DNA of 50,451 bases from a virus. Lineage: Duplodnaviria; Caudoviricetes. A program made the position numbers and the translations under genes. Under the pieces are notes generated by a model. The model searched no databases, was not told the origin of the DNA, and saw only the letters and a program-made list of their open reading frames with translations. Below are positions 1,332 through 46,422 of this stretch, one piece after another; within the stretch, counting starts at the first letter, position 1, and every line of letters begins with the position of its first letter. The stretch lies in IMG/VR virus record IMGVR_UViG_3300015203_000012, positions 1-50,451 of that record. One strand, given 5' to 3'.

Positions 1332-1507
1332 CGACGGTGTGGACGACCCGCACCGGCACCGTCCTGCACGCAACACCGTCATGCCCGACCTTGGACGGCC
1401 GGAAGATCCTGAAGCTCGACCGGTCGGATGCGCTGCCCGGCTCGACGCTCTGCACGACGCCGCTGTGCCGGATGGTCCGCGGCCGCGCACGGGAGAAAGC
1501 CGCATGA
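1328..1507 (+). CDS. small Cys/His-containing protein, 59 aa (not in ORF track)
   Basis: VTTVWTTRTGTVLHATPSCPTL...LCTTPLC; GTGA and ATGA overlaps at both ends. Confidence 0.6.
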   Translation: MTTVWTTRTGTVLHATPSCPTLDGRKILKLDRSDALPGSTLCTTPLCRMVRGRAREKAA

Positions 1508-1529
1508 CCGACGCACCGTGCTCGCTGTT
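1504..1529 (+). repeat. module-start motif B, copy 1 (ATGACCGACGCACCGTGCTCGCTGTT)
   Basis: Aligns without gaps to 37246-37271 and 43582-43607. Confidence 0.6.
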
Positions 1530-1917
1530 CGATCACCGCGTTATCGTCTGCGGAAGCCGCCGATTTCACGACCGCGAGCTAATGGCATCCGTCCTGAGCG
1601 AGTTGCAGATCGACCGTGGCTGGACGCCGCTGATCGTCCACGGAGCCGCTCGCGGAGCCGACCGGATCGCAGGCGAGGAGGCAGGAAAGCTCGGCTTCCA
1701 CACCGAGGAGCATCCGGCCGACTGGGACAGGCTTGGAAAGGCAGCGGGCTTCATCCGCAACGAGGAGATGGCTGCGCTCGGAGCATCGCTGTGCATCGCT
1801 TTCTGGGATGGCAAGAGTCGCGGGACGTGGGACATGGTCGAGCGGGCGAAGAAGCACGGGATCGACTGGGAGATCCACTGCGGCAAGCCGGGGGAGTTGT
1901 CCTTTGCAGCCGCGTGA
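1504..1917 (+). CDS. SLOG family (YspA/DUF2493-like) nucleotide-binding protein
   Basis: VIVCGSRRF, VHGAARGAD, HPADW..GKAAG.IRN, AFWDGKSRGT. Confidence 0.85.
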   Translation: MTDAPCSLFDHRVIVCGSRRFHDRELMASVLSELQIDRGWTPLIVHGAARGADRIAGEEAGKLGFHTEEHPADWDRLGKAAGFIRNEEMAALGASLCIAFWDGKSRGTWDMVERAKKHGIDWEIHCGKPGELSFAAA

Positions 1918-1937
1918 CGTAGGGCATGGAACCGGGC
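1915..1937 (+). repeat. 23-bp site A (TGACGTAGGGCATGGAACCGGGC), consensus copy
   Basis: Identical to 43995-44017 and 44194-44216; its TGA is the SLOG stop. Confidence 0.9.
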
Positions 1938-1980
1938 AGTCGGGCCGTCCGATCGTCGTCGCCATCCCGGGGAGATCGCT

Positions 1981-13567: not shown

Positions 13568-14142
13568 CGGTCGAGCGGCGCTTCGAAACAGGGGCGCGTG
13601 GCACCCCTTCGACCGACCCCGGCCTGGTGCTCGGAGACGATGGTATCGCCTATGTTGTCGCGCCTGACGGCTCCAGGACGGCGGTCGGAAGTGGCGGTTC
13701 CAGTGCCTCCGTAGGGAGCGAACAGGTCTACGGCAACCCGACCGGATCAGTGGCGGCAGGGGATCTAGCGTCGCTGACGTTCGACTCGTTCGGGCAAGGT
13801 GACGACCTCCTCGACTTCACGGTTCCTACTCTGCCGGTCGTCAAGGTGGCAGGCCTCTATACCGTCACGATCAACGCTTTCCCTGGCGAGGATATGTCGA
13901 GCGACGCACAATTTTATATGACGTTGACGCTCGACGCCGCAGGACAAGTGGCTTACGCTGTCAACAACAGTGCTTCGGCATATCCGGGCAGTCTGCGGCC
14001 TGAAAACTCCACGACCGTCTCCTATTTCATTCCTCTTGGTGGCGCGATCCTCGCGACTGTCAGGAACGCGGACAGCATCGCGCACACCTTCGCGATCGAC
14101 GTTGCGGTGATTAGCTGCGTCGTTGCTTCCCGGATGACGTAG
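13564..14142 (+). CDS. beta-rich (C1q/TNF-like) virion or accessory protein
   Basis: VKVAGLYTVT pattern; atypical codon usage; ends in site A. Confidence 0.5.
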   Translation: MTVERRFETGARGTPSTDPGLVLGDDGIAYVVAPDGSRTAVGSGGSSASVGSEQVYGNPTGSVAAGDLASLTFDSFGQGDDLLDFTVPTLPVVKVAGLYTVTINAFPGEDMSSDAQFYMTLTLDAAGQVAYAVNNSASAYPGSLRPENSTTVSYFIPLGGAILATVRNADSIAHTFAIDVAVISCVVASRMT

Positions 14143-14157
14143 GGCATGTAATCGAGA
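14135..14157 (+). repeat. site A variant (TGACGTAGGGCATGTAATCGAGA)
   Basis: First 14 nt match consensus; contains the TAG stop of 13564..14142. Confidence 0.8.
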
Positions 14158-14186
14158 CAACGGTGCGTCCGTCGGGACATTGCGGC

Positions 14187-14215
14187 TTGTCACCGACCGC
14201 CCCCGCGCCTACCAT
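14187..14215 (+). promoter_or_regulatory. sigma-A promoter, leaderless to GTG 14223
   Basis: TTGTCA-N17-TACCAT, 7 nt before GTG. Confidence 0.6.
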
Positions 14216-14222
14216 CCGTGCC

Positions 14223-14912
14223 GTGGATGTCCTGACCGCCGCCGCCGCAGGGTTCGCCCCGATATACCCGCCAGCCGGCTGGTTCGACAACCCGGCCCTT
14301 GACGGGCCAACAGCGCTCACGGTCACCCGTGACGGACGTGTCTACGGGCACGCCGCACTGTGGGACAGCTGCCATGTCGGATTTCCCGGCCGGTGCGTCG
14401 CGCCGCCGCGCTCCCGGACCGGGTACAGCCACTTTCATCTCGGCGAGATCTCCACCCAGGAAGGCCACGAGGTCTACGTCGGCAAGATCACCCTGGCGTC
14501 AGGGCACGCCTCGACAGCGGCGGGGATGACCGAGGAGGCCGCCCGCGCCCACTACGACGACACCGGCACCGTCGCCGCATACGTCAGGGCAGGCGACGAC
14601 CAGCACGGCATCTGGCTCGCCGGCGCCGTCCGCTCAGACCTGCCGGCCGAACGGCTGCAAGACCTCCGCGCAAACCCCGTGTCGGGGGATTGGCGTGGCG
14701 GCGAGCTCATCGCCGCCCACTGCGTACCGACACCCGGGTTCCCGGTGCCACGTGTCGCGTCGAGGCTCGCCGCGTCGGCTGCAGAGACGCCACTAGCGCT
14801 TGTCGCATCGAGCGGTCTGCGACCGACCGTCGACGAGGCAGACACGCTGGCGTTGATCGCGGCGCTCTCCGCCCCCGAACGGCGTGTCGCACGGCCCGGG
14901 TTCGGCCGCTGA
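14223..14912 (+). CDS. head-maturation protease-associated domain protein
   Basis: GRVYGH.A.W..CH.G, HYDDTG, GIWLAG, SGDWR, PGFP; typical of actinophage head modules. Confidence 0.65.
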   Translation: MDVLTAAAAGFAPIYPPAGWFDNPALDGPTALTVTRDGRVYGHAALWDSCHVGFPGRCVAPPRSRTGYSHFHLGEISTQEGHEVYVGKITLASGHASTAAGMTEEAARAHYDDTGTVAAYVRAGDDQHGIWLAGAVRSDLPAERLQDLRANPVSGDWRGGELIAAHCVPTPGFPVPRVASRLAASAAETPLALVASSGLRPTVDEADTLALIAALSAPERRVARPGFGR

Positions 14913-15571: not shown

Positions 15572-15928
15572 CTAGATCGTCGCGCCGTGCAGCTTGCGAT
15601 GACAGTTAGAGCAGAGCACGATGCACTTGGCGATCTCGGCTCGCAGTTTGGTCTCGCCACAGTCTCGTGCTTGCCCACGTCCGAAGCCAAAGCTCTTAGT
15701 TGTCGGATCGACGTGGTGAAAGTCAAGACAGCGAAGGTCACGCTCGTCGCAGCGTGAACACCCTTCTGCCTGGGCCTCGGCGATGATTCGACGGTTTCGT
15801 TCAACCGTTCGTTTCTTCACGACTCGGCGAATCGCTCGAGCCTTCTCAATGTTCTCAGGCCGGAGCCGCCACTCCTTCTGATACTTGCGATGATAGGCGA
15901 GGAACGCCTCTCTGTCCTTGATCGGCAC
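15572..15928 (-). CDS. free-standing HNH endonuclease, antisense to late genes
   Basis: CSRC...LDFHH...KCIVLCSNCHRKLH. Confidence 0.85.
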   Translation of the reverse strand: MPIKDREAFLAYHRKYQKEWRLRPENIEKARAIRRVVKKRTVERNRRIIAEAQAEGCSRCDERDLRCLDFHHVDPTTKSFGFGRGQARDCGETKLRAEIAKCIVLCSNCHRKLHGATI

Positions 15929-15977
15929 GGGGTTTACGCCACCACCTTCGAGGATGAGCATAGGTGACCACGGTGAC

Positions 15978-16007
15978 TTGCGCAACGTCCTCTGATGCGC
16001 ATACACT
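15978..16007 (+). promoter_or_regulatory. putative promoter of major capsid gene
   Basis: TTGCGC-N18-TACACT. Confidence 0.45.
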
Positions 16008-16110
16008 CCCCGCCATAAGGACAGGCCGCGTAGCAGCCTTCCTCTAGCGGAGCCCGTAGGTGCTCTCGCGACGACCGCACTTTCAACACTCGTCACGAGG
16101 AGCCCACGGC

Positions 16111-29516: not shown

Positions 29517-29989
29517 CACATCTTTTTTTTTACGGGGCGCCGCGAACTTCGGTTGTCGCAGGGGTGTTCAGCAACTCGATCTCGTTGGGCACCGCGCTCG
29601 TCGGCGTCATGCTCCTCGCGTTCGCCGCCTACTTCGCATGGAAGAACAAAGCGCTCGAGTCCGCACAGGGAAGCGCCGTCAGTGCGAACACGTCGGCGGA
29701 GCGGTGGCGTGAGGACTACCTGGGGCTGCGGGAGGTGCTCGAGGACAAAGAGACACAGCACGCAGCCGCGCTCGCGGATGCCAACGCCCGCTATGAGGAG
29801 CAACGTGCGTTGAAGCACGCCGCGCTCACCGAGAACGCCGCCCTCAAGATGGCGACCGACCTGTCCGGGGTCATGCAAGCGCTCACCGACATGGCGACCC
29901 GGTTCGCGTCGTTCAGTGATGTCCAGCAGTCACAGACCCGGGTGCTCGAGCAGATCGAGAAACGACTCGCCGCGATGAACGGCCACTAA
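29513..29989 (+). CDS. membrane-anchored coiled-coil protein (lysis cassette)
   Basis: One TM segment then heptads. Confidence 0.65.
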   Translation: MTHLFFYGAPRTSVVAGVFSNSISLGTALVGVMLLAFAAYFAWKNKALESAQGSAVSANTSAERWREDYLGLREVLEDKETQHAAALADANARYEEQRALKHAALTENAALKMATDLSGVMQALTDMATRFASFSDVQQSQTRVLEQIEKRLAAMNGH

Positions 29990-31408: not shown

Positions 31409-31681
31409 CGGCTGTGCCGTCACCGCGGCGACGGCATCGTCGACCGTCTCGCCTGCGCGCACGAGATCCATTGCGCGCACCGTCGCACGCAACCTCTCCC
31501 CCTTGTTGGCCATTCCGGCCCGCTCGAGCCGAGCCGCGATTTCCTTCACCGCGGCCGCGTTGCGGTCTGGCGTATTCGATTCGGCAGGGTGTTGGTCGCG
31601 GCCGCAGTGATGGCAGACGTCGGCGCCGAGTTTCATCCGTTTGTGACACCACCGGCACTTGAAGACACCCTTCGGCATCAC
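31397..31681 (-). CDS. Zn-ribbon protein
   Basis: CRWC...CHHCG. Confidence 0.65.
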   Translation of the reverse strand: MMPKGVFKCRWCHKRMKLGADVCHHCGRDQHPAESNTPDRNAAAVKEIAARLERAGMANKGERLRATVRAMDLVRAGETVDDAVAAVTAQPLSG

Positions 31682-31995
31682 AGTCCTGCCTTCTGGAGCC
31701 GGCTGTCGAGGTCGGCGATCTGACGTTCGAGTGCCGTCATCCGCTCCTCGCGTATCTCGCGCGGGTCGTAGAACCAGTCGGGTTTTGCCTTCAGCTTCTT
31801 AGGTGCGACGCGCGCGAGTTCGACCGCGTTCGCCTCTGAGGGGAGGTCGCCCGCCTCCCACCGTTTGATTTGGCGAACGTTTACACCGACCTCTTCAGCC
31901 AGCTCTTGCTGCGTCAGTCCGCGCATCGCACGGAGCGCTTTCACGCGCTGCTCTTTCGGCAACCCGAGCAGATCAACATGGCCGTTCAAACCCAT
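31678..31995 (-). CDS. Xre-family HTH regulator
   Basis: LR..RGLTQQELAEEVGVN.RQIKRWE.G..PS. Confidence 0.85.
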   Translation of the reverse strand: MGLNGHVDLLGLPKEQRVKALRAMRGLTQQELAEEVGVNVRQIKRWEAGDLPSEANAVELARVAPKKLKAKPDWFYDPREIREERMTALERQIADLDSRLQKAGL

Positions 31996-32187
31996 TGCGG
32001 CCACCCTCCCAACCACTCACAATGAGCGGCTCGATGGCTACAAGCGACGAACTGCGGCAGGCGATGAACGACTACGCCTGCGCGTGCGAACTCCCCGATG
32101 CCGAGCGTCGCCGCGTCGGCGTGATGTCGCTCCTCGTGTGCCGCCGCTGCGGCCTCTTCGTGCTCGGCGAACCCTCCCCGACGCCCG

Positions 32188-32694
32188 TCAGGCAGCTTCG
32201 CCAGGAGCTTCGAGACCTCCAGCTGCTCGTCCGTGCTCTTCAGAGCGGAGCCGGGCATCGCGGAGAACCTCAGCAGGGTCGATCCCCTCAGCGCGTAGGA
32301 GAGCCTCGACGAGCGCGCGCAGTTCGCGGGTTTCTTCGACTCCTGCCTCCGCCCGATCCGGAGTAGCCGGCGGCGCGTCGGCCGGCTCATCGTCGTCGGC
32401 GAAGATGTCGCCGGCGTCTCGGCCGAGCTTCTCGAGGATCGCGTTGAGGTCGTCCCAGCTCGGCAGTGAGGGGTCGCTCTCGTCCTCGAGGCGCTGATAT
32501 TGCCGGAGCGAGTATCCGAGAAGTGCTGCCATCTCTGGCTGTGGGAAGCGCCGGGGATCACCTTTACCTCGTTGCCGTCTTTCGTCAGCCAGGACGGCGG
32601 CGAGCCGGGCCTTCATGCGCGCCTTGTCCAAAGCCATTTCCAGAAGGAACGTAGCCAGACCGTCACGCCGTGTCGCCGACATTTGACGCGCCAT
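32188..32694 (-). CDS. cI-like immunity repressor (Xre HTH)
   Basis: Q.EMAALLGYSLRQYQRLE; divergent from cro-like gene. Confidence 0.75.
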   Translation of the reverse strand: MARQMSATRRDGLATFLLEMALDKARMKARLAAVLADERRQRGKGDPRRFPQPEMAALLGYSLRQYQRLEDESDPSLPSWDDLNAILEKLGRDAGDIFADDDEPADAPPATPDRAEAGVEETRELRALVEALLRAEGIDPAEVLRDARLRSEEHGRAAGGLEAPGEAA

Positions 32695-32697
32695 CAC

Positions 32698-32731
32698 TTG
32701 ACACGTTAGGTCGCGTCGCCTAACATGTCAA
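32698..32731. promoter_or_regulatory. palindromic pair of overlapping divergent promoters/operator
   Basis: TTGACA-N17-TAACAT on +, TTGACA-N17-TAACGT on -; 13-bp arms with 1 mismatch. Confidence 0.85.
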
Positions 32732-32734
32732 TAG

Positions 32735-32995
32735 ATGACGCGACGCGAAACACGCCACGCCGAGACGCCGACCAAGCTCATCATCGCCGCTCGGATCCGT
32801 GAAGCCCAGCTAGAGCTGGGCATCAAGACCGAGGATCTCGCCCAGCAGACCGGGATCAGCCTCCGCCTCGTCCAGAAGCACCGCGCCGGCGACAACGCGC
32901 CCGGAGACATCAGCCTCCGGCGTTACGCCGAGGCACTCGACAAGCCGCTGTCGTTCTTCTTCACGGGTGAACCCCTTGAGAAGGCGGTCGCCTGA
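32735..32995 (+). CDS. Cro-like HTH regulator
   Basis: RIRE...LG...EDLA..TGIS...G...P...L...A.AL..PLSFF. Confidence 0.8.
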   Translation: MTRRETRHAETPTKLIIAARIREAQLELGIKTEDLAQQTGISLRLVQKHRAGDNAPGDISLRRYAEALDKPLSFFFTGEPLEKAVA

Positions 32996-33342
32996 TGCTT
33001 GAGCACCGCGAGGCAGCGACGGAACTGATTGGTCGCCCGCTCAAGCGCGGCGAGCTCGTCCACCACTGCAACGGCATCACGGGCGACAACCGCCCCGAAA
33101 ACCTCTGGGTTCTCAATTCCCAGGAACACGTCCGCATTCACAGCGCCGCCGATCTGAACATCGGGATGCTCACTCCGATTGCGATGACGTTCGAGTGCGG
33201 ATGCCGGACGTGGCTAAAGACTGATCGGCTGCTCATTCCAGACAGAGAAGTGCTTTGGGCGCCGTGTGTGCTTCATGAGCATTTCAAGCCCGATTCCACC
33301 TACCTGACGCCCAGTGACTACGGCCGTGAGGTCGCAGCGTGA
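32995..33342 (+). CDS. HNH endonuclease
   Basis: EHR...GRPL...E.VHH.NG...DNRPENL. Confidence 0.85.
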   Translation: MLEHREAATELIGRPLKRGELVHHCNGITGDNRPENLWVLNSQEHVRIHSAADLNIGMLTPIAMTFECGCRTWLKTDRLLIPDREVLWAPCVLHEHFKPDSTYLTPSDYGREVAA

Positions 33343-34202: not shown

Positions 34203-34649
34203 ATGGATCCCACGATCACCTGCCCGAGCTGCGGATCCGTTGAAGGCAAGGTCACGGTCGAGTCGATCGCGACGCTCGCCTACAGCGGCACCGTCCAGGC
34301 CGAGATCAACATCGCCGAAGACCTCATCGCCGACAACGGCACCCATACATGGGAGCACAAGCACGTCGTCGAGGTACGAGACCGGCTCAATCCCAGCCGT
34401 GAGCTCTCGACGTTCCGGCGTGACGGCGACCCGTCAGAACTCAACCTCGTCGACTGGAGCAGCCTCGAGCTCGACAACGACCAGCTGATCGCGTTCTGCT
34501 GGCAGTGCCAGTCCGACGTGACCGAACAGTTCAAGCAGCTCCTCGACGCACGGGTGCCGCTCGAGCCGCAAGACCCGACCGACGACGAGATCTACAACCG
34601 CACCCAGTACGTGCCCGACGGCCGCGACGAAAACCATTGGAGTCTCTGA
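34203..34649 (+). CDS. hypothetical protein (two CxxC)
   Basis: CPSC...CWQC. Confidence 0.65.
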   Translation: MDPTITCPSCGSVEGKVTVESIATLAYSGTVQAEINIAEDLIADNGTHTWEHKHVVEVRDRLNPSRELSTFRRDGDPSELNLVDWSSLELDNDQLIAFCWQCQSDVTEQFKQLLDARVPLEPQDPTDDEIYNRTQYVPDGRDENHWSL

Positions 34650-35125
34650 TGTCTGAGATCGCAACCCGGTCCCCGGGGTTTTTGTCTGACCGTGGGGCCT
34701 TCGATCGCTTCTGCGAATCGGTGGATGTTGCTGACGACGGCTGCTGGCTCTGGACAGGGCGCACGTTCCCTGATTCCGGTCGCGGAGTCTTCCCGATCCA
34801 GCGGACAAACGGTAAGTGGCAGCGTGCACAGGCGCATCGGGCCGCCTACGAGCTGCTCGTCGGCCCGATCCTCGATCGGCTCGTACTCGACCATCTCTGC
34901 AACAACAAGATCTGCGTCGCGCCCGAACACCTCGATCCCGTAACTCAAGCGGTGAACCGCGAAAGACAAACAACGCGGCAGACCCGTTGCTATCGCGGCC
35001 ACCCTTTGAGTGGCGACAACCTCTACACCTACGTGCGGCCTAGCGGCACTGTGACGCGGCACTGCCGCGAATGCCGGCGGCTTGCTGACCGTCGCTGCGA
35101 CGCGCGCAAAAGGGAGCGCTCATGA
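34649..35125 (+). CDS. HNH endonuclease
   Basis: CWLWTG, AHRAAYE, LDHLC.N..CV.P.HL..VT...N, C..GH. Confidence 0.9.
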   Translation: MSEIATRSPGFLSDRGAFDRFCESVDVADDGCWLWTGRTFPDSGRGVFPIQRTNGKWQRAQAHRAAYELLVGPILDRLVLDHLCNNKICVAPEHLDPVTQAVNRERQTTRQTRCYRGHPLSGDNLYTYVRPSGTVTRHCRECRRLADRRCDARKRERS

Positions 35126-37082: not shown

Positions 37083-37249
37083 TGGATGCCACAGACCGCA
37101 GAGTGAAGAAGCAGATCGGTGAGGCTGTCGCCTATGCGTACGGGTTCCACGCGACCGTTGACCCACCCGATCCAGAGTTGTGTGCGTGTCAGCGCGAACG
37201 GCCCGAGCAGGGAACCGACCGGTGCGTCTACTGCCGGGAGGCGTCATGA
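37082..37249 (+). CDS. small Cys-rich protein, 55 aa (not in ORF track)
   Basis: CAC...CVYC; coupled at both ends. Confidence 0.55.
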   Translation: MDATDRRVKKQIGEAVAYAYGFHATVDPPDPELCACQRERPEQGTDRCVYCREAS

Positions 37250-37271
37250 CGAAGGAACCGTGCTCGCTGTT
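37246..37271 (+). repeat. module-start motif B, copy 2
   Basis: ATGACGAAGGAACCGTGCTCGCTGTT; last 15 nt identical to copy 1. Confidence 0.6.
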
Positions 37272-37452
37272 ACATGTCCGCTCTTGTGAGTCGTGTGGCC
37301 GTGCGCCGATCGGTTCCTACCGTGCGAATCCGACCAGGGCCTACCTCTGCCCCTATTGCAACGAGAGGGCCGTCTTGCGGGACGAGGGTGTGGTCGTGGA
37401 CAGCTTCACGAACGTCTGCCACGAAACCTGCCTAGCGAAGGCGACTGCGTGA
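37246..37452 (+). CDS. small Zn-finger protein starting with motif B
   Basis: CESC, CPYC, CH..C. Confidence 0.6.
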   Translation: MTKEPCSLLHVRSCESCGRAPIGSYRANPTRAYLCPYCNERAVLRDEGVVVDSFTNVCHETCLAKATA

Positions 37453-37658: not shown

Positions 37659-38128
37659 CCAGTCTCGAACTCGTCAACATCGACCTGACCGACGCTAAGC
37701 GGTTCGTGCGCGAGCATCACCGCCACAACCCCAAGATGACCGGCTGGAAGGTCGGCGTTGGCCTAGCCAATGGGGAACTGCGCGGCGTGGCCGTCCTGTC
37801 GCGGCCAATCTCGAAAGAGGTTCAGAAGCAGGAACCACGCACCGCTGAGATCATCCGTACCTGCACGCTTGGCGACAAGAACGCCAACAGCCGTCTCTAT
37901 GGCGCGATGGCCCGCGCAGCTGCTGCCCTGGGCTACACGGCCGTCATCACGTACACCCGTCCCGACGAAAGCGGTGCGAGCCTCAAGGCCGCCGGTTTCG
38001 TTCGGGACGAAGGCGAGTTCGGTTCTCGCGAGGGCCAGATTTGGCACAGCAGGCAGCAATCGCTGATCGACGACGACCGCGACAACTCAGGTCCGAAGTA
38101 CCGATGGAGGCGCGTTCTCCGTGGCTGA
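37655..38128 (+). CDS. XF1762/Mom-like GNAT-fold protein
   Basis: FV..HHRH, GVA...RP, E..R.C, NA.S.LYGA, ITYT...E.G.SLKAAG. Confidence 0.75.
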   Translation: MTSLELVNIDLTDAKRFVREHHRHNPKMTGWKVGVGLANGELRGVAVLSRPISKEVQKQEPRTAEIIRTCTLGDKNANSRLYGAMARAAAALGYTAVITYTRPDESGASLKAAGFVRDEGEFGSREGQIWHSRQQSLIDDDRDNSGPKYRWRRVLRG

Positions 38129-38321
38129 CGTAGGGCATGTAACCGGGCAGCACCATCGCGCGTTGCTGTCGATCATCCCGATCACGGATGACGAGGTTGA
38201 ACGGCTCTGGGCGACCATCGACAAGCCTCTCGACAAGATTCACGAAGCCGAGGTTTGGTACGAAGTCACGTCGCTCCGCGAGTCGATTCGTCGCCTGCTA
38301 ACCGAACGGGAGCAGCGATGA
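38121..38321 (+). CDS. small cassette-like ORF between two A sites
   Basis: Starts MADVGHVTG. Confidence 0.6.
   Translation: MADVGHVTGQHHRALLSIIPITDDEVERLWATIDKPLDKIHEAEVWYEVTSLRESIRRLLTEREQR
38126..38148 (+). repeat. site A (22/23)
   Basis: TGACGTAGGGCATGTAACCGGGC. Confidence 0.9.
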
Positions 38322-39499
38322 ACGTGGGGCATAGAACCGGGCAGGAAACGCCGCCGAGCGAGGAAGCGCTCCTGCCGGTTCTGCTCGAGCGCGTCACGGA
38401 CGTGTCGTCGTTCGCGAAGGCGAAAGACATCTCTCTCCCGCGCGCCGCGGCCACCTACATCATGTTCAAACGCAAGCGCCTCACGGCGGCGTCGGAGCGC
38501 GGCTACCAGACGATCCTGAACGAGTTCTCGAAGCACCACCCCGGCGCCACGCTCGGCGACTTCGAGCCGCCGCGCGGCAACATCCTCATCGAGGACTTCC
38601 TGACCGCACGGTGGGGCGACAGCGCACCTCGCACGTACAACAAAGCCCATTCGGTGCTCTGCGACTTCTTCTCGTGGCATGTCGCCCGCGACACCATGCA
38701 GCGGGACCCGATGGCGACGATCGAACGGGCGAAGGCCAGACCTCCGCGCCGCATCACGTTCTCGAAGGCTCAGGTCGCCGCGATCTTCGCCGCCAACCAT
38801 GAGCCGCACGACCAGATCGCCCTGCGGCTGCTCCTCCACTACGCGATCCGCAAAGGCGCGTTGCGCGGAGTCCAGTTCGACCACTTCGACCACGAGAAGC
38901 GCACCCTCACCGTATTCACCAAGGGCGAGCAGTTCCACACGTTGCCGATCGTCGAAGACCGCATCTGGGAGCTCATCGACGACCTTGGCGAGCCGGGCCA
39001 CCACTACCTGCTCCCGAGACGGCTTCTCCGGAAGCGAATCTCGCCGAGCCGGGCCGAGTTTGCTGCGGCTTCAGACCACCTCGGCGATTTCCTCTTCGCG
39101 CTGACCGAGATCGAGGACACCGCGTGCGCGGCCGAACTCGCGACGCTCCTGGCGCATGCCGAGCGGACTCTGCCGTTGTTGAGCCTGATGGTCGAGGCGG
39201 CGGCGATCCGCGAGCATGTATTTCCGGCCGAGCCGATGGGCGAGCACGGCGCTCACCTCTGGTGGTACCGCTGCCTGTGGCGCGCCGGCGTCGTCGAGCC
39301 CGGCACCACGAGCGGCCGCAAATTGCATTCGGCCAGGCACACCGCGATCCAGGCGGTTCTCGACACGACAGGAAACCTTCGCGCCGCCCAGGCCGTCGCC
39401 GGCCACAAAAACGTCGGCACGACCGGAGACAACTACACCGACTGGACCGAGGGGCAGACCGAGAAGACGCTCCGCGACACGATCGGGGCGTCGTCGTGA
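38318..39499 (+). CDS. tyrosine recombinase 1
   Basis: Catalytic set AIRK, TKG, HSARH, GH, NY; ~60-aa insertion in catalytic domain. Confidence 0.85.
   Translation: MNVGHRTGQETPPSEEALLPVLLERVTDVSSFAKAKDISLPRAAATYIMFKRKRLTAASERGYQTILNEFSKHHPGATLGDFEPPRGNILIEDFLTARWGDSAPRTYNKAHSVLCDFFSWHVARDTMQRDPMATIERAKARPPRRITFSKAQVAAIFAANHEPHDQIALRLLLHYAIRKGALRGVQFDHFDHEKRTLTVFTKGEQFHTLPIVEDRIWELIDDLGEPGHHYLLPRRLLRKRISPSRAEFAAASDHLGDFLFALTEIEDTACAAELATLLAHAERTLPLLSLMVEAAAIREHVFPAEPMGEHGAHLWWYRCLWRAGVVEPGTTSGRKLHSARHTAIQAVLDTTGNLRAAQAVAGHKNVGTTGDNYTDWTEGQTEKTLRDTIGASS
38320..38342 (+). repeat. site A variant (19/23) at start of recombinase 1
   Basis: GAACGTGGGGCATAGAACCGGGC. Confidence 0.8.
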
Positions 39500-39546
39500 C
39501 GGTGCGCGGCGTGATGATGCGGACCCCCAACCTGGAGGTCACACCC

Positions 39547-40617
39547 ATGGCGCGCAAAGCGCAGCTGTCACTCGACCACGCGACCGACCTGTGGCTTGGC
39601 GAGCTCGCCCGCCAAGGCCGCGCCGAAACAACCCGGCGGAAGTACCGCGAGACGCTCGACCCGTTCTGCGCCACCTACGAGCACCTGATGCCCCGAGAGA
39701 TCACCGCCGACCACTGCCGGTCGTTCCTCAACCGGTGGTCGAACCATTCGAAATCGACTCTCGCTCTCCACGTGACCGTGTTGCGGGGCTTCTTCCGGTT
39801 CCTCTACAACGAGGAAGTGATCGACCGCAACCCGGCCGAGAAGCTGCAGCGGCCGCGGAGGCTCAGGCCCGAGGACGTCGACGTCGTCTCGGTCTCGAGC
39901 AACGACGTCCGCCGGATGTTCGACGCGGTCGCGACCTGGCAGGAATTGATCTGCCTTTCGGTCCTGCTCTACCTCGGCGTTCGCCGCCGCGCTGCGTCTT
40001 CAGCCCGCCGGCGGGATCTCGACTTCGAGCAAGGGACGATCCGGTTTCGTGAGAAGGGCGGCAAGGCGATCGTGAAGCCGATGCCCGACGAGCTCGCCGC
40101 GATCCTCCGTGCCGCCGACGAGCACGGCGTGTGGTCGACCCCGGACGACTACCTGATCCCCAACCGGAAGCCGTGGCTCGTGCGCGCAGGCGCCGAGCGG
40201 GGCCACAAGGTGATCTACGAAACGGTGATCAAGGTCGCCCAGCGCGCCGGCGTTCGCTCGCACGTGCACGCGCTCCGGGCGGCGTTCGCGGTGCAGTTCG
40301 ACGAGGCGCACCCCGACCAGGTGGTCGCACTCAAGGAACTGCTCGGCCACTCCCGCATCGAGACGACCATGACGTACCTGCGCCGCAAGGACAAAGCCCG
40401 TGCGATGGAGACGGTACGTGACCTCTCGTGGGGCTCATCCGTGTTTCCGGCGAACACCGCAGTACCCCCAACGGGATTCGAACCCGTGTTGGGAGCCGAC
40501 GCTGACGGCAACAGGGATTCGCCGGCAGCAGAGACTGTAGACGTTCCGGCGGCGCTTCAGGCGAAGCTGCGTGAGCTCTCGCTCGCGGCGAAACACAGGG
40601 GGCGCGTCGAGCAGTGA
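39547..40617 (+). CDS. int: tyrosine recombinase 2 (integrase, contains attP)
   Basis: GGAGG RBS; GVRR, EKGG, HALR, LLGH, TTMTY. Confidence 0.9.
   Translation: MARKAQLSLDHATDLWLGELARQGRAETTRRKYRETLDPFCATYEHLMPREITADHCRSFLNRWSNHSKSTLALHVTVLRGFFRFLYNEEVIDRNPAEKLQRPRRLRPEDVDVVSVSSNDVRRMFDAVATWQELICLSVLLYLGVRRRAASSARRRDLDFEQGTIRFREKGGKAIVKPMPDELAAILRAADEHGVWSTPDDYLIPNRKPWLVRAGAERGHKVIYETVIKVAQRAGVRSHVHALRAAFAVQFDEAHPDQVVALKELLGHSRIETTMTYLRRKDKARAMETVRDLSWGSSVFPANTAVPPTGFEPVLGADADGNRDSPAAETVDVPAALQAKLRELSLAAKHRGRVEQ
40462..40490 (-). other. attP core = 3' half of a tRNA (likely Glu)
   Basis: Minus strand AACACGGGTTCGAATCCCGTTGGGGGTAC: T-arm plus acceptor strand. Confidence 0.8.
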
Positions 40618-41675: not shown

Positions 41676-42640
41676 CGGCGGCTGCGTTCGAGGCGAACCT
41701 GATCGACTACCGGCACTCCGTCGTGCAGGCGAACAAGCGCGCGGATGCGGGCGACGAGTCGTTGGAGATCTGCGCGTGGTGCATGTGCGAGATCGACCTG
41801 GATCCGCAGCCGCATCGGCCGGAGTGCCCGGGGATAGGCCAGCCACGCGCGACGTCGGAGCCTGTCCTCGCGAACGTCGGGCCGCTCAGTCATTCGCCGG
41901 CGCCGCGGCGTGCCGCGGTCGACGGGCTGGATGCGTTGGAGCGGATGGACGCCGGTCTGCCACAGGAGCCCGACCTCGACGACGAAGAGGACGACCCGGA
42001 CGACGACTTGGGGGAGCGGGAACCACAGGCAGCCGACCCTGCCTCGGCGCCGGCGATTGAACCGCCAGCACCGTCCCGCTCCTCGAGCACCATCCGTGGT
42101 CGCGTACCGGCGTGGACGAGAGAGGCCGCGATCGCCGCTGTGCAAGCGTTCGCGGCCGAGCACGGCCACCCGCCGTCGCACGCAGACCTAGCCGGCAATC
42201 CCCTTCTCCCGTCTGCGCCGACCGCGAAGCGCCTCTTCGGCGGTCCGTTCAGCGACCTGATCGTCGCTGCCGGCTTCCGGCGCCCGGGCAGAGGTACCCG
42301 CTACAAGGATTCGTCCAGCGAACGTGCTGCGAGCCAGTCGTCGGAGAGGGGCCTCGCTCGCCTACACGACGACGGTGGACTGGACGACGAGCAGCCGGCG
42401 ATGGGGGCACGCACGCCGGAAGCGACCGCCGACGGGACGGGGGAGCCGGAACCCGGGCCGGCTCCCGATCCCGCCCAGCCTTTGGGTGAAGCCCCCCCCT
42501 GTGGACTGACCCTCGACGAGCTCGCTGCTGCCGGCAACGCGATGGAAGCGATCGCTTCGAGGCTGCAGCATCTCGAGCGTCCGTCACGCCGCAACGTCTG
42601 GGACTTCATCCGGCCGCTGATCGACGAGGCGCTCGCATGA
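41672..42640 (+). CDS. low-complexity protein with homing-endonuclease-associated repeat
   Basis: WTRE..I.A...F..EHG.PPS..D...PS......FG......AAG. Confidence 0.6.
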   Translation: MTAAAFEANLIDYRHSVVQANKRADAGDESLEICAWCMCEIDLDPQPHRPECPGIGQPRATSEPVLANVGPLSHSPAPRRAAVDGLDALERMDAGLPQEPDLDDEEDDPDDDLGEREPQAADPASAPAIEPPAPSRSSSTIRGRVPAWTREAAIAAVQAFAAEHGHPPSHADLAGNPLLPSAPTAKRLFGGPFSDLIVAAGFRRPGRGTRYKDSSSERAASQSSERGLARLHDDGGLDDEQPAMGARTPEATADGTGEPEPGPAPDPAQPLGEAPPCGLTLDELAAAGNAMEAIASRLQHLERPSRRNVWDFIRPLIDEALA

Positions 42641-43203
42641 TCGATCTCTTCCGGGTCTATGAGGATGTCGGCGCTGACGGCTACCCGACCGAGTGGCACG
42701 ACACGATCAAGCACGTCGTGCGCGAAGCAGCAGGGCACCGCTGCGTCCGCTGCGGGCATCCCTACACGAAGGGGATGGGCGAATGGTCGCCATGTGACGA
42801 GCGCTGCCGCCATCACGACAACGGCCCGATCCGCGTCATGCAGGCAGGTGAGCTCGTCGGCCACTGCGAGGCCTACAACGGCGGACTCGACGTCGCACGC
42901 GCAGGCTGGGACGAGATCCCCGACGCGATCCTGGAGGCGCAGTGGCGGATCCTCACCGTCCACCATCTGAACGGCGACAAGGCCGACTGCCGCTGGTGGA
43001 ACCTCGCGAGCCTCTGCCAGCGCTGCCATCTGCGCGTCCAACGCGTCGTCGTGATGGAGCGCATCTGGCCGTGGGAGCACTCGGACTGGTTCAAGGTGCA
43101 CGCCGCCGGCTGGTACGCCCACGCCTACCTCGGCGAGAACATCAGCCGCGAGGAGGCGCTCGAGCGGCTCGACGAGCTGCTGGCGTTGGAGCGTGCGGCG
43201 TGA
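42637..43203 (+). CDS. HNH-family protein
   Basis: RC.RCG...LTVHHLNGDK.DC...NL..LCQRCH. Confidence 0.8.
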   Translation: MIDLFRVYEDVGADGYPTEWHDTIKHVVREAAGHRCVRCGHPYTKGMGEWSPCDERCRHHDNGPIRVMQAGELVGHCEAYNGGLDVARAGWDEIPDAILEAQWRILTVHHLNGDKADCRWWNLASLCQRCHLRVQRVVVMERIWPWEHSDWFKVHAAGWYAHAYLGENISREEALERLDELLALERAA

Positions 43204-43433
43204 CCGCGGATCCGCATCCGCTCGCGCGAACCGCCGAGATCGTGATGGCCCGCGACCCGCTCAACGAGCTGCTCGTCGCGTGCGCCGGCTGCGGCCAGCA
43301 GGTGCTCGTGTGCGGCTACGTGACCGACCTGCCTGCCCCGCACCGGTGCATCGAGTGTCGCGGCCCTGGGAAGCGTCCCGGCGGTGCTGCAGAGGCTATG
43401 CAGGCCGCCCGGAAGGCCGCGGGTGTCGCGTGA
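43200..43433 (+). CDS. small Zn-finger protein
   Basis: CAGC...CIEC. Confidence 0.55.
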   Translation: MTADPHPLARTAEIVMARDPLNELLVACAGCGQQVLVCGYVTDLPAPHRCIECRGPGKRPGGAAEAMQAARKAAGVA

Positions 43434-43585
43434 CATCAGGTGACTTGATCTATGTCCTGTCCGGCGGTACGGTCGTGAGCGTGCAGCCTCACCTCTCGTC
43501 GTCTCGGAGCCCGCGCCTGCAGCGGAGGCTGCACACCATCTCTGCGGGAGCGGACTCGGAAACGACTGAAGGAGGCTCGCTGTGA
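43430..43585 (+). CDS. small hypothetical protein
   Basis: Coupled overlaps. Confidence 0.4.
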   Translation: MTSGDLIYVLSGGTVVSVQPHLSSSRSPRLQRRLHTISAGADSETTEGGSL

Positions 43586-43607
43586 CGGACGCAACACGGT
43601 CGCTGTT
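43582..43607 (+). repeat. module-start motif B, copy 3
   Basis: GTGACGGACGCAACACGGTCGCTGTT. Confidence 0.5.
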
Positions 43608-43785
43608 CTCGGCCCGCCGTGTGGTGGAGCATCTGGACGAGATCCGGGCGACTTTGTCCGATCTCAAGCTTGCCGCTAACGACGAATCAGTGCGCTCGAT
43701 CGTCCAAGAGGCACAGGATGCCGTCGCACTCGCGGCCGACCAGATTGAGGCGATGCTCGCTCGATTTGCGAGTGAGGCGCTGTGA
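43582..43785 (+). CDS. small helical protein starting with motif B
   Basis: AAGGAGG RBS. Confidence 0.65.
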   Translation: MTDATRSLFSARRVVEHLDEIRATLSDLKLAANDESVRSIVQEAQDAVALAADQIEAMLARFASEAL

Positions 43786-43997
43786 AACTCCCAGAGGTTC
43801 ACATCTGGCGCAGCAAGTACGGCCGTGTCGAACGCGTCGAGTTCCGCGACGGCCCTGAGCGAATGGAGATGCGGGTCTGGCGCATCGTAAGTTCGTACGA
43901 CGCGAATGACGGGGTTCCGCGCGTTGAGTTCGCGGTGATCGCAAAGCCCATCTACCACGACATCGAGGACGAGGACGATGGCGATGGCGATGACTGA
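43782..43997 (+). CDS. small hypothetical protein; stop supplied by site A
   Basis: Coupled overlaps. Confidence 0.6.
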   Translation: MKLPEVHIWRSKYGRVERVEFRDGPERMEMRVWRIVSSYDANDGVPRVEFAVIAKPIYHDIEDEDDGDGDD

Positions 43998-44196
43998 CGT
44001 AGGGCATGGAACCGGGCTGGGTGCTGAGGTCGTGGCGAAGCTTCGCGAGGCGGACGACGCTACATCCGTCGTTCACGACTACCTGTGCGGTCTGAACGAG
44101 GTCTCACCGTCGGACTGCGAAGCCGCAATCTGGCAGATCCACAACACGCTCAGGCCGCTGATCGACCCGAGTGGCGAGGAGTGGATTCGTGTCTGA
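43990..44196 (+). CDS. cassette-like ORF (MTDVGHGTG...)
   Basis: Bounded by two perfect A sites. Confidence 0.65.
   Translation: MTDVGHGTGLGAEVVAKLREADDATSVVHDYLCGLNEVSPSDCEAAIWQIHNTLRPLIDPSGEEWIRV
43995..44017 (+). repeat. site A, consensus copy
   Basis: 23/23. Confidence 0.9.
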
Positions 44197-44401
44197 CGTA
44201 GGGCATGGAACCGGGCCGCGCATCGCGCTCTGGCAGGACGTGTTCCAGAAGCCGCACTGGGTTCTCCAGGTTGGCCGTCTGCTCGTTCACTACTACGGCA
44301 AGCCTCGCCTCAAGCCGTTCTACTTTCGACGGCTCAGCAAGGGCGACACGCTGAATCTGCCGGACGACGAGCCTGAGTTTCGGATGGTGTTCGGTGTCTG
44401 A
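44189..44401 (+). CDS. cassette-like ORF (MSDVGHGTG...)
   Basis: GAGGAG RBS; bounded by A sites. Confidence 0.6.
   Translation: MSDVGHGTGPRIALWQDVFQKPHWVLQVGRLLVHYYGKPRLKPFYFRRLSKGDTLNLPDDEPEFRMVFGV
44194..44216 (+). repeat. site A, consensus copy
   Basis: 23/23. Confidence 0.9.
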
Positions 44402-44594
44402 TCGCGGAACGGAAACCGGGCCTTCAGACGGTCTGTTCTTCCTCCAGAGGCTCACGGAGAAGAAGGGCAAGCACTACCTCATCTGGCACGAATACATGAC
44501 TGCCGAGGCTCGCGAGCGGTGGGCCGCGAAGTACCGCGAGCGCGGCGACAAAGTGACCTTCGTCGGAGACGGCACGGGAGGCATCTATGTCTGA
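44394..44594 (+). CDS. cassette-like ORF (MSDRGTETG...)
   Basis: Bounded by A-site variants. Confidence 0.6.
   Translation: MSDRGTETGPSDGLFFLQRLTEKKGKHYLIWHEYMTAEARERWAAKYRERGDKVTFVGDGTGGIYV
44399..44421 (+). repeat. site A variant (14/23)
   Basis: TGATCGCGGAACGGAAACCGGGC; same junction geometry. Confidence 0.65.
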
Positions 44595-44802
44595 TCGAGG
44601 GCATGGAACCGGGCACCCCAAATCTTCGTCGGAAGCGGTAACTGGCACAGCCAGTCCCGCGCAGGGAAACCGGAGCGCGGTGAGATCAGCCGCTTCCGAC
44701 GAAGGAACTAGAACCGGGCAAGGATCAGGCTCGCTGTTCCAGGGCGCTGAAACGCCTGGAAATCCGCAGATTGTGACACGGAAGGAGGATGCATGGGCCT
44801 GA
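44587..44802 (+). CDS. ORF made largely of stacked repeat remnants
   Basis: SDRGHGTG...SEAVTG...SDEGTRTG...GSLF. Confidence 0.35.
   Translation: MSDRGHGTGHPKSSSEAVTGTASPAQGNRSAVRSAASDEGTRTGQGSGSLFQGAETPGNPQIVTRKEDAWA
44592..44614 (+). repeat. site A variant (20/23)
   Basis: TGATCGAGGGCATGGAACCGGGC. Confidence 0.85.
44697..44719 (+). repeat. site A variant (17/23)
   Basis: CGACGAAGGAACTAGAACCGGGC. Confidence 0.7.
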
Positions 44803-45167
44803 CCACCGACCCGAACGATCCGAGGCTCGGCCACGGTGTGGATGATGAGCCACTACAGGGCCAGCACGACGTCTACCTCGTCCTGAGCGACGAGGAGCGC
44901 GCGAAAGGTTTTGTGCGCCCGGTGCGCCGCTCCTACGTCCATCGGTTCATGCTCGACGGGAGCGCCCTTCCGGTTGTCCTGACGAGCTTGAACGGCGTCG
45001 GAGGATGCGGCGCGCTGACGACGATGGCGCAGGCCATCGCCGAGACATACGCCCGCAACCCGGCCTTTTACGGCTCGACGTGGTGCGTGGGGTGCAACAA
45101 GCACTTGCCGGTCGGCGCTGATGGCGAGTTCGTGTGGGATGGCACCGACGAGAAGGTGGGCACGTGA
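44793..45167 (+). CDS. phage hypothetical protein (Cys/His motifs)
   Basis: YLVLS.EERAKGFVRPVRRSY.H...CG..T.M...IAETYAR.P.FYGST.C..C. Confidence 0.75.
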   Translation: MGLTTDPNDPRLGHGVDDEPLQGQHDVYLVLSDEERAKGFVRPVRRSYVHRFMLDGSALPVVLTSLNGVGGCGALTTMAQAIAETYARNPAFYGSTWCVGCNKHLPVGADGEFVWDGTDEKVGT

Positions 45168-45412
45168 GCACGCGCTGCGTTGCCTATATGCGGCCGTTCC
45201 CGAACCCGACCGAGATTCGCTGCGGCCTTGAGCAAGGCCACCCCGACGAGTTGCACAAAGGCGAAGTACGCGACTACGCCTACCCCGGCTCCAAGACGGT
45301 GATGACCTGGGCTGACAGCGACCGCCGCACCTACCACGGAGAGTGGCCCGGGCCGTGTGACTCTGCGAGATGCATCTTGCCGCTCGGTCACCACGGGAGT
45401 CACGCGACGTGA
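45164..45412 (+). CDS. small Cys/His protein
   Basis: C.L..GH twice. Confidence 0.6.
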   Translation: MSTRCVAYMRPFPNPTEIRCGLEQGHPDELHKGEVRDYAYPGSKTVMTWADSDRRTYHGEWPGPCDSARCILPLGHHGSHAT

Positions 45413-45669
45413 TCGACTTTGTGCAGCCCGGTGGCGGGCATGGAGCCGGGCCTAGCCGTTGCACTGATCCGTGCTGGACGCCGCTTGATTGTCCTGATTG
45501 CGGTCGCCGGATGAACCCTCGTGGCCGCAGCGCCCCGTTGGAGATCGTGTGCCTCCGTGAGCCGTGTCCGGCCGACGACCCGAACGTGAATCCACGGCAT
45601 CTGTGGAGCGCGACCGACGATGAGCGGTGGCGGTTTTACCCGGACGAGAGGCCCGTCGATGAAGACTGA
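45409..45669 (+). CDS. small Cys-rich protein; stop supplied by site A
   Basis: CPDCG...PRGRSAP. Confidence 0.6.
   Translation: MIDFVQPGGGHGAGPSRCTDPCWTPLDCPDCGRRMNPRGRSAPLEIVCLREPCPADDPNVNPRHLWSATDDERWRFYPDERPVDED
45429..45451 (+). repeat. site A variant with degenerate left arm (17/23)
   Basis: CGGTGGCGGGCATGGAGCCGGGC. Confidence 0.55.
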
Positions 45670-45689
45670 CGTAGGAACGGTAACCGGGC
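45667..45689 (+). repeat. site A variant with alternative spacer (18/23)
   Basis: TGACGTAG-GAACGG-TAACCGGGC. Confidence 0.85.
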
Positions 45690-45711
45690 CCTCTGGGCGG
45701 TCGTTGGTCTA

Positions 45712-46422
45712 GTGCCTCGTTCTCACGGGGTGATCAAGGTGTCGGTGTGGGAGGTCGGGTCGGACTTCCGGGGGCTCTCGCTCGACTCGCAGTGGGCGTA
45801 CGAGATGCTCGTCTCGCAGCCGCAGATCAACAACCTCGGCCTGCTGCCGTACACCCCGGAGAAGTGGTGGAGGTTCGCCGCCGACCTCACAGCTGTCCGG
45901 TTGCACCAGGCGCTCACGCAGCTCGAGCAGGCCGCGATGACCGTCACCGACAGCGAGACCGGCGAGCTCCTCGTCCGCACGTTCATCAAGCACGACCGGA
46001 TCTGGAAACAGCCGAAGCTCGTCACGAACGCCCGGAAACTCATCCGGGAAGTCGAGTCCCATCCGATCCGAAGCTACCTCCTCGACCGCCACCCATGGCT
46101 CATCGAGGAGTCCTGGTCGCACGACAAAATCGAACGGCACGAGACCACCAGACGCCGGCCCAGAACCACCACGACGGAACCCCTATCCACACACGAACCC
46201 ACAGCCAACGGGAAACCCCTAACCGAAGGGGAACACGAAGGAGTAACCGAAGCCCTAACAGAGGGGGTATCTCCCCCGCGGGCGCGCGTACGCGATGGCC
46301 TACCCCTACCCCAAGCCCCTACCCCAACTACGGGTTCAAGCGTTAGCGAGACAAGGGCTGTTGCGGCACCCCTCGGAACAGCCCTTACTCAAATCACCCC
46401 AGAACTGCGGAACATCCAGTGA
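45712..46422 (+). CDS. putative replication initiator
   Basis: I..S.W...DF..LS...QW.Y..L.SQP.IN..G.L, E.LVRTFIKHD; low-complexity C-terminal region with repeats. Confidence 0.65.
   Translation: MPRSHGVIKVSVWEVGSDFRGLSLDSQWAYEMLVSQPQINNLGLLPYTPEKWWRFAADLTAVRLHQALTQLEQAAMTVTDSETGELLVRTFIKHDRIWKQPKLVTNARKLIREVESHPIRSYLLDRHPWLIEESWSHDKIERHETTRRRPRTTTTEPLSTHEPTANGKPLTEGEHEGVTEALTEGVSPPRARVRDGLPLPQAPTPTTGSSVSETRAVAAPLGTALTQITPELRNIQ
46177..46330 (+). repeat. iteron-like repeats, candidate origin
   Basis: TAACCGAAG x2, TAACAGAGG, CCCCTACCCCAA x2. Confidence 0.45.

Follow-up and report, generated by a model that had tools for sequence, protein, structure and literature searches.

Att-like sites at gene starts of a temperate phage resemble those of its own integrase family and may delimit single-gene cassettes

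The window analysed here is the whole stretch of 50,451 bp in the IMG/VR virus record IMGVR_UViG_3300015203_000012 (G+C 66%, 75% complete according to CheckV). It carries 14 sites of 38 bp, 13 of them read within genes and nearly always as the first codons, which fall into three classes by their 6-bp centre (CCGGGC, TCGAGA and TCGCTG). Sequence comparisons make it very probable that these are attachment (att) sites of the family of int1, a tyrosine recombinase encoded in the same window. With less assurance, we favour the view that int1 drives the gain, loss and exchange of single-gene cassettes at these sites. The original prediction had described dif-like repeats at which single genes are gained or lost by tyrosine recombination; the second part is supported, while the dif label is not the best fit. 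The sites, the candidate enzyme and the cassettes are listed below, with p values for single arms taken from an external position weight matrix (PWM) of attP arms. In the 38-bp parse the previously listed sites start one position later, for example 1916 and 14136 in place of 1915 and 14135.

1506..1543, minus strand: reversed att-like site, overlap TCGCTG, at the N-terminus of the SLOG gene 1504-1917; arms p = 0.048/0.052
1916..1953, plus strand: att-like site, overlap CCGGGC; second-best arm pair in the window (11.0, external PWM)
14136..14173, plus strand: complete inverted repeat of att type around the overlap TCGAGA; highest-scoring arm pair of the window (20.6); its right side is non-coding with no in-frame start, and it closes ORF 13564-14142 just ahead of the protease gene
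37248..37285, minus strand: reversed site, overlap TCGCTG, at the start of ORF 37246-37452; arms p = 0.003/0.020
38127..38164, plus strand: site, overlap CCGGGC, at the start of ORF 38121-38321
38321..38358, plus strand: site, overlap CCGGGC, in the first codons of int1
38318..39499, plus strand: int1, tyrosine recombinase of the Thermoleophilia tRNA/tmRNA-integrase family, candidate cassette recombinase
43584..43621, minus strand: reversed site, overlap TCGCTG, at the start of ORF 43582-43785, heading the main array; arms p = 0.0085/0.009
43996..44033, plus strand: site, overlap CCGGGC, at the start of ORF 43990-44196; partner arm at background
44195..44232, plus strand: site, overlap CCGGGC, at the start of ORF 44189-44401
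44400..44437, plus strand: site, overlap CCGGGC, at the start of ORF 44394-44594
44593..44630, plus strand: site, overlap CCGGGC, at the start of ORF 44587-44802
44698..44735, plus strand: site, overlap CCGGGC, internal to ORF 44587-44802, giving a 105-bp 'empty' unit
45430..45467, plus strand: site, overlap CCGGGC, near the start of ORF 45409-45669
45668..45705, plus strand: site, overlap CCGGGC, in a 17-codon ORF (45659-45712) that couples to the replication initiator gene
44012..44608, plus strand: three putative single-gene cassettes of 199, 205 and 193 bp from overlap to overlap, each ending in the start codon and arm of the next gene

All 11 positions originally listed hold the motif on the plus strand. 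They score 21.0-36.8 bits on a PWM, whereas elsewhere on the two strands the highest score is 9.6, and in a leave-one-out test they reached 14.5-35.9 bits with no non-site above them. The literal consensus pattern fared less well: its 10 matches far exceed the 0.26 expected, but it is exact at only five of the 11 repeats and lies within three mismatches at nine, with 44399 and 45429 needing more than three and the non-site 22780 also matching. Three copies are indeed identical (1915, 43995 and 44194), the first two being 42,080 bp apart. The array has the reported spacing of about 200 bp (199, 205 and 193 bp) with one open reading frame (ORF) each, and the bodies of the array ORFs show no mutual similarity at E<0.1, apart from one weak pair elsewhere (37449/44793). 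The genes, however, do not lie between the repeats. At 10 of 11 sites the repeat is translated in frame within the ORF, nearly always as its first codons, and encodes an N-terminal peptide of the type M-[TSA]-D-[VR]-G-H-G-T-G. The first TGA of the repeat is mostly the stop codon of the upstream gene, and five junctions display an 8-nt RTGnnTGA start/stop overlap indicative of translational coupling.

The arms had been described as conserved around a central 6 bp of two classes, and here the picture changed. The left 8 bp vary considerably, while the terminal CCGGGC is invariant at 10 of 11 sites; the two 'spacer classes' are variants within a binding arm, and the overlap would be the terminal CCGGGC. 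Three sites missed earlier (1506, 37248 and 43584), at gene starts (1504, 37246 and 43582) that share a TCGCTG motif, bring the total to 14. Each of three clusters opens with such a reversed TCGCTG site, located 410, 879 and 412 bp before the first CCGGGC site, and a partial TCGCTG site follows site 44698 at 44731. The centre is invariant in all 14 distinct sites of the CCGGGC class, whereas arm columns range from 7 to 14 of 14, and blocks within the arms appear shuffled among copies. Rare codons (GTA, 4%; GGG, 20%) are preserved within the sites even though the amino acids change. An invariant centre, and codons retained in spite of amino-acid changes, place the constraint on the DNA. An explanation at the level of the peptide was ruled out, as site 14136 and its counterparts in the related phages G002 and G003 have no in-frame start and the rare codons are kept.

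The dif reading was examined against host sites. A pattern search found a dif-type site once in each of 29 of 81 Gaiellales genomes, with no control matches; its consensus (loci L204-L211 and L214-L242) is ACTTGACATAA-N6-TTATCGTGC, and that of Solirubrobacterales, again one per genome where found, is TKACATAA-N6-TTATCGRGC. We take the Gaiellales site to be dif from its single copy per genome and from the actinobacterial consensus. The phage motif does align to it at offset 0 and in the same orientation (column permutation: 10 of 2000, p ~0.005; also 2 of 500), with agreement at no more than 7-12 of the 22 arm positions. On the dif PWM the window scores highest at sites 14135, 38126 and 45667; at 6.8-6.9 these scores remain below chance matches of 10-16 in other loci. 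Where the 30 distinct host sites read ATAA-N6-TTAY, every phage site has GTAG..KAAC or is changed further. The resemblance to dif, judged on these alignments, is therefore partial: few arm positions match, scores lie below those of chance matches and the inner ATAA/TTAT is changed everywhere.

These results bear on the explanation that host XerCD recombines the repeats as degenerate versions of dif, comparable to the dif modules of Acinetobacter. It would draw on the offset-0, same-strand alignment and on the three top window scores, and a host enzyme would account for the sharing of sites among unrelated phages. According to PMC13141974, one T-to-C substitution at the innermost-but-flanking first XerD base is likely inactivating, and dif modules alternate in site orientation. 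The CCGGGC sites are direct repeats, with only the cluster-heading TCGCTG sites reversed. Moreover, the dif parse of 8/6/9 is the weaker fit and fails to predict a second arm at spacer 6. Together with the mismatches listed above, this makes recombination by XerCD very improbable. As a separate observation, an identical 20-mer with a dif-like right half, TGACGTGGACAGCTTTATCG, is scattered on the chromosome in G009 (16 places) and G006 (2 places) and occurs also in L213; it is possibly the end of an insertion sequence.

A better match was found in the att sites of the family to which int1 belongs. The wider family consists of ordinary integrases of transfer RNA (tRNA) and transfer-messenger RNA (tmRNA) genes. 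T-arm sequence, marking the 3' end of a tRNA or tmRNA gene, follows the integrase gene at a distance of up to 350 bp at 92 of 123 loci with enough flank, compared with 96 of 2400 random windows, and ARAGORN calls tRNA/tmRNA gene DNA (tDNA) at family loci for tmRNA, tRNA-Arg, tRNA-Cys and tRNA-Glu. Rows were sorted into gene-type and attP-type by the first letters after a 6-bp stretch. The attP-type copies depart from the gene sequence right after this stretch and continue as an inverted tDNA arm, giving a 16+6+16 layout with a mean arm pairing of 9.1 of 16 (30 rows) versus 5.1 in gene-type copies (76 rows). At loci L003-L163, attP/attB identity stops 6 bp past the T-loop on its 5' side, with the same geometry for tmRNA, tRNA-Cys and tRNA-Arg. 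This endpoint and the 16+6+16 attP suggest that crossover in the family takes place within the T-stem, on its 5' strand, as opposed to the loop; a 7-bp overlap centred on the T-loop was dropped because the identity extends 6 bp past it.

Between the phage consensus and the family att core, 15 of 20 positions agree; with two different scores, the permutation test gave 7 and 0 of 500 (for dif, 2 and 2 of 500). Site by site, with 5 att and 25 dif references, att fits better at nine of 11 sites, dif at one, and one is a tie. In the att register, the repeat comprises one arm, GACGTAGGGCATGGAA, and the centre CCGGGC, and a second arm is predicted outside the repeat. For an independent measure, a PWM was built from 23 attP right arms devoid of tRNA sequence (one of 24 was dropped for weak pairing). 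All 11 window left arms scored in the top 1.7% (median 0.1%), solely at offset 0 of 13. The unique 16 nt beyond the overlap, taken at 16 sites from four phages, likewise scored as an inverted arm when the spacer was 6 (Fisher 1.1e-6, with p<0.02 at 5 sites), while other spacers from 0 to 14 gave p>=0.06 except for spacer 10 at 0.003. With all 24 arms, the second-arm signal held up in comparison with random positions (p=0.002) and with 50 gene starts matched for position (p<1/20000, or 0.00025 when site 14136 is left out). A scan of the whole window for arm pairs ranked 14136 first (20.6, compared with 23.3 for a genuine attP in G004), followed by 1916. The three gene starts with TCGCTG proved to be reversed sites of the same kind (arm p 0.003-0.05), and three copies of TCGCTGTT away from gene starts had arm scores at background.

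Several points weigh against this assignment. Partner arms in the array are mostly poor: 43996 is at background, six of 10 CCGGGC sites have p>0.15 and only 1916 is below 0.05. The overlaps seen in the family (CCCGCG, CCGGTG, CCTGCG) are unlike CCGGGC, whose invariance is in part built in by the method of finding sites, and the left edge of the overlap was placed by symmetry alone. In addition, the att match was noticed after the dif match, and the sites and loci tested are not independent of one another. We nevertheless hold, with high though not full confidence, that the sites belong to the att type of the int1 family.

It was also considered that the repeats are regulatory, i.e. stoperator-like or Start-Associated Sequence (SAS)-like elements bound by a phage repressor, or by int1 without cutting. 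One site covers the start of int1 itself. Regulators with a recombinase fold exist, and MrpR/YopR, regulators according to the entry title, are among the fold matches of int1. No site lies in the following region:

31678-32995: cI/cro region, by annotation

The repressors of the window had no homologue found in phages G001-G004, whose records are incomplete; the otherwise unrelated G001 has a site identical at 22 of 23 positions. Conservation falls on the centre flanked by two arms, which is what strand exchange demands, all six catalytic residues are kept in int1, and the sites follow the start codon and do not occupy the position of a ribosome-binding site. The 11 sites in one orientation at gene starts do recall stoperators and SAS (PMC3029335, PMC3203893). 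Overall, the stoperator-like alternative raised in the original prediction is weak, and we regard a regulatory role as quite improbable.

The residues R178, K202, H337, R340, H363 and Y373 of int1 are invariant in 54 of 54 aligned rows. The protein has no N-terminal arm-binding domain (Pfam), its fold matches are tyrosine recombinases and it scores far below the XerC, XerD and IntI cut-offs. An insertion of ~55 residues (about 236-295), present in 36 of 54 rows, forms a beta-hairpin with two helices at its tip in the structural model. In a quick tree, in which second integrases sit on long branches, int1 falls in a supported clade (16 rows, SH-aLRT 98). An adjacent tDNA att is found at none of five loci of insertion-bearing int1 relatives, compared with 73 of 96 others (Fisher 0.0012; loci not independent), and all five insertion-bearing records examined downstream (the window, G002, G003, L016 and L018) have a second, different recombinase there. 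The arm-type peptide opens 10 of 43 clade proteins versus one of 76 others, a pattern chosen after looking. At the start of int1 (38333-38385) the site pairs with downstream sequence to form a long hairpin (z -2.6 as DNA, -2.8 as RNA), which possibly controls int1 translation. Elsewhere, L145:10001-13105 contains two int1-family gene copies in opposite orientation, facing each other and apparently interrupted.

The second recombinase of the window and its probable target are as follows.

39496..40617, plus strand: int2, a distant tyrosine recombinase (22% over 152 residues to int1)
40462..40488, minus strand: tRNA-Glu 3' end, likely attP core, with the same sequence as the tRNA-Glu(TTC) end in the Gaiellaceae locus L133

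int2 is likely the prophage integrase, and ordinary integration at tRNA-Glu would be its task. No int2-like gene was found beside int1 relatives in 165 loci, and a fixed XerC/XerD-like pair of int1 and int2 was rejected because the second recombinase differs among relatives. The att core sits within the 3' part of the int2 reading frame, so that integration would alter or remove the last ~45 codons of int2.

On this basis we propose that int1 recombines sites consisting of a 16-bp arm, a 6-bp centre and a weaker inverted arm, with the crossover inside the centre. Tyrosine recombinases require identical overlaps; with the crossover in the centre, only sites of the same class would thus recombine. 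A cassette would span from one CCGGGC to the next and comprise a gene body, its stop codon, and the start codon and arm of the next gene. As it carries the start codon and arm for the gene that follows, any cassette inserted would be read in frame and be coupled in translation. A circle of 193-205 bp would be freed when one CCGGGC site recombines with its neighbour; in five of six units tested this circle would contain a complete ORF starting from its own 3' start codon. Reinsertion of the circle at any CCGGGC site would place its gene in frame and coupled to the preceding gene, and crossovers at one TCGCTG and one CCGGGC site could swap a block between two phage genomes.

This scheme meets difficulties of its own. 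No recombination product was seen in the data at hand, which are assembled contigs only; sequencing data likewise available as contigs show no joint at any site, which tells neither for nor against. Sites of the same class 5.7-36 kb apart would permit harmful deletions, so any present-day activity would be low, rare or restricted. None of the cassette gene bodies recurred in a second array. The tRNA-Glu att of the window leaves the host tRNA at a position typical of the int1 family, for which reason int1 could be the prophage integrase instead; the right arm of this att scores poorly on the family PWM. We therefore rate cassette shuffling by int1 as moderately probable.

Homologous recombination was weighed as another explanation, on which two proteins of the phage bear.

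35122..37082, plus strand: RecT-like annealase and Cas4-like nuclease

Under this explanation the repeats are short boundary sequences for RecT-type recombination, and their likeness to att is incidental or historical. Mosaicism by boundary sequences has already been proposed (PMC3029335), and the arm blocks look shuffled between copies. It predicts, however, neither an inverted second arm at a fixed 6-bp spacing in unique DNA, nor reversed sites of another centre class, nor a match to the att of the int1 family, and the shared identity spans only 15-23 bp. We consider it a poor candidate.

Related phages provide evidence in both directions. G001 (43.8 kb, 61% complete) has only the integrase family in common with the window. 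It contains four CCGGGC sites at consecutive gene starts, preceded by a partial TCGCTG site. The one integrase in its record, however, is an ordinary family member, 30% identical to int1, with its own tmRNA att, so that the requirement for the int1 clade is questionable. G003 has a strong site of the TCGAG class (9182) at a gene end far from its int1, scoring 22.2 against a shuffle maximum of 14.3. An arm-only scan of held-out records further found two reversed arm matches sharing the centre CACTGA just ahead of int1 in G003, a TCGCTG-class match at a gene start in L018 and two arms at the int1 start of L016; the additional matches of G003 and L018 lie individually within the shuffle range. 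In G004 the scan returned its real attP alone. The closest relative, G002, is syntenic with the window at ~70% nucleotide identity. At the place orthologous to 14136 it has a weak site (34449) that shares TAATCGAGA; the gene upstream is unrelated, and conserved DNA begins again ~40 bp downstream. G002 has int1 but no array, and its best site scores 9.9 compared with a shuffle maximum of ~13.

Differences around the sites were also seen in single proteins. The first 11 residues of ORF 44189 occur on an unrelated gene body in P0125. The SLOG homologue in L034 is without the site-encoded N-terminal peptide of ORF 1504, similarity beginning at residue 12, and P0003, with an 87%-identical int1, differs in the first ~16 residues and the upstream sequence. 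In P0126, a 75% homologue of ORF 38121, the N-terminus has diverged in the same register, although a clean breakpoint is absent. Wider searches added little. The exact motif had no match in IMG/VR, and looser patterns matched 1, 28, 33 and 0 loci, which apart from G001 and G003 held no array and look like chance. None of the 401 Thermoleophilia or 61 Gaiellales genomes searched contained the motif, and the 50,697 GenBank phages gave nothing beyond short chance pieces. Near distant int1 relatives the window-trained motif was not enriched (two of 22 matches within 1.5 kb upstream, 1.1 expected).

The relatives are relevant to the most serious competitor, namely that the repeats are att-derived scars of occasional captures by ordinary family integrases at secondary sites, which accreted and were kept for their start codons and coupling, without ongoing shuffling. 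The G001 array next to an ordinary tmRNA integrase only, the weak partner arms, and the presence of int1 but no array in G002 speak for it; tandem ssrA islands and accretion have been described (PMC3146451). On the other hand, the sites are no tRNA fragments: both arms and centre have drifted from every tRNA end encountered, and two otherwise unrelated phages still have the centre in common. Units near 200 bp in a common frame, and an insertion-bearing clade that is devoid of att and whose proteins open with the arm-type peptide at the frequency given above, are further points against scars. We judge this explanation unlikely, though it deserves to be kept in mind.

A broader and more tentative picture can be drawn, which we hold to be possible but do not expect: phages of Thermoleophilia would operate an independently evolved cassette system, the third besides integrons and dif modules. 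In it, a lineage of tmRNA/tRNA integrases would have dropped its chromosomal target, gained a helical insertion and come to act on att cores in the first codons of genes, with start codons borrowed from the upstream unit and two incompatible overlap classes allowing natural, recombinase-mediated cassette exchange between co-infecting phages.

The phage is a temperate siphovirus with annotated portal, capsid, tail, terminase, replication initiator and cI/cro-like regulators, and no tRNA or tmRNA gene is present in the window. Named genomes with int1 relatives are nearly all Solirubrobacterales and Gaiellales (70 loci). Their taxonomy, and the identity of the tRNA-Glu end at 40462-40488 with that of a Gaiellaceae locus, point to a host in the Gaiellales. 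Among the cassette proteins, SLOG (1504) and Mom-like/XF1762 (37655) were the sole family assignments (PHROG, Pfam, PADLOC). ORF 43990 had no Atlas match above 0.82, no viral relatives of the replication initiator protein were found, and a promoter scan of 43200-46000 returned none.

A few other features of the window were noted. Five HNH endonuclease-like genes are present (1981-2580, 15572-16129, 32995-33342, 34649-35125 and 42637-43203), one of which comes after site 1916 via a 26-codon ORF. The terminase-portal interval (2577-8938) holds a gene cluster with weak glycosyltransferase and formyltransferase matches that is kept in G002. At 11423-14912, the protease gene and a MuF-like gene that carries a 2H-phosphoesterase domain match consecutive parts of PHROG 859 but are split by ORF 13564-14142 and site 14136; other genes fill this slot in G002. 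A run of nine T at 29522-29530, at the start of ORF 29513, is unusual at 66% G+C and may be a slippage site.

How phages gain and lose small orphan genes precisely at gene boundaries is a long-standing question, and conserved boundary sequences are usually not found (PMC3029335). Here the boundaries are explicit, have the anatomy of tyrosine-recombinase sites and come with a named enzyme in the same genome, so the proposal is testable with one protein and 38-bp sites. If true, it would show how an ordinary phage integrase can turn into an integron-like platform, make phage accessory genes minable via their sites and possibly provide a core-only recombinase with several non-crossing overlap classes.

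Among known systems, integrons (PMC4889954) are similar in their tandem single-gene units in one orientation, as seen at 43996-44698 and in the G001 array, and in a core-binding tyrosine recombinase with an insertion. That of IntI comprises ~35 residues near patch III (PMC4889954), and by analogy the int1 insertion appears comparable in position. However, int1 has no TIGR02249 or NF011946 match, and int2 reaches 58.8 bits where the cut-off is 265. Unlike attC, the phage sites have no palindromic fold and resemble the double-stranded att cores of tRNA/tmRNA integrases. An attC-like hairpin was rejected: as DNA, two of 17 sites reached a fold of z<-2, complementarity gave a Fisher p of 0.51 over 19 sites and there was no Rfam match, although good folds were obtained at the int1 start (z -2.6) and at one G001 site (z -2.2). 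The start codon is moreover supplied by the upstream unit, and the system is phage-borne with several clusters. Acinetobacter dif modules (pdif, XerCD; PMC13141974) share two arms around a 6-bp spacer, spacer classes that would limit the choice of partner, and small accessory modules, some bounded by inversely oriented sites. They differ in that the phage arms are nearer to int1-family att, the inner dif bases are changed, the arrays are direct repeats, the sites lie within coding sequence and the candidate enzyme is phage-encoded.

Tandem tRNA/tmRNA islands, namely the ssrA islands of Dehalococcoides (PMC3146451) and those of Islander type, likewise have repeats related to a tmRNA/tRNA 3' end, integrase-less units and the same target family. 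As in such tDNA islands, int1 is a tyrosine integrase with intact catalytic residues whose family members adjoin tDNA att, and the sites combine an arm, a 6-bp overlap and an inverted arm like the family attP, clearly so for 14136 and 1916 and with a weak second arm at most array sites. The window repeats, in contrast, are not displaced gene fragments beside an intact tRNA or tmRNA gene; they have 12-15 of 20 identities to the tDNA end and a new centre, and the units are single genes of ~200 bp in a phage. Stacked islands at ssrA were also observed in Solirubrobacterales, where L101, L118 and L149 each carry three tandem copies of the tmRNA 3' end. Mycobacteriophage stoperators and SAS (PMC3029335, PMC3203893) are asymmetric one-orientation repeats at the starts of non-structural genes, but as described there they are 13 bp long, lie upstream of or between genes and have no second arm at a fixed spacing, whereas the present sites are 38 bp long, come after the start codon within coding sequence and are linked to an integrase family through their sequence. 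HE-PICI satellites (PMC10111431) resemble the system in having an integrase clade whose target moved into phage genes; theirs are multi-gene elements with their own integrase in late genes, as opposed to single genes without one. Taken together, the feature would work like an integron or dif-module array but belongs to neither of these, nor to the tandem tDNA islands. It would be categorically new among site-specific gene-cassette systems if int1 is shown to shuffle genes; in the literature searched, outside which lay most subscription papers, no description of coding-embedded phage cassette sites derived from att cores was found.

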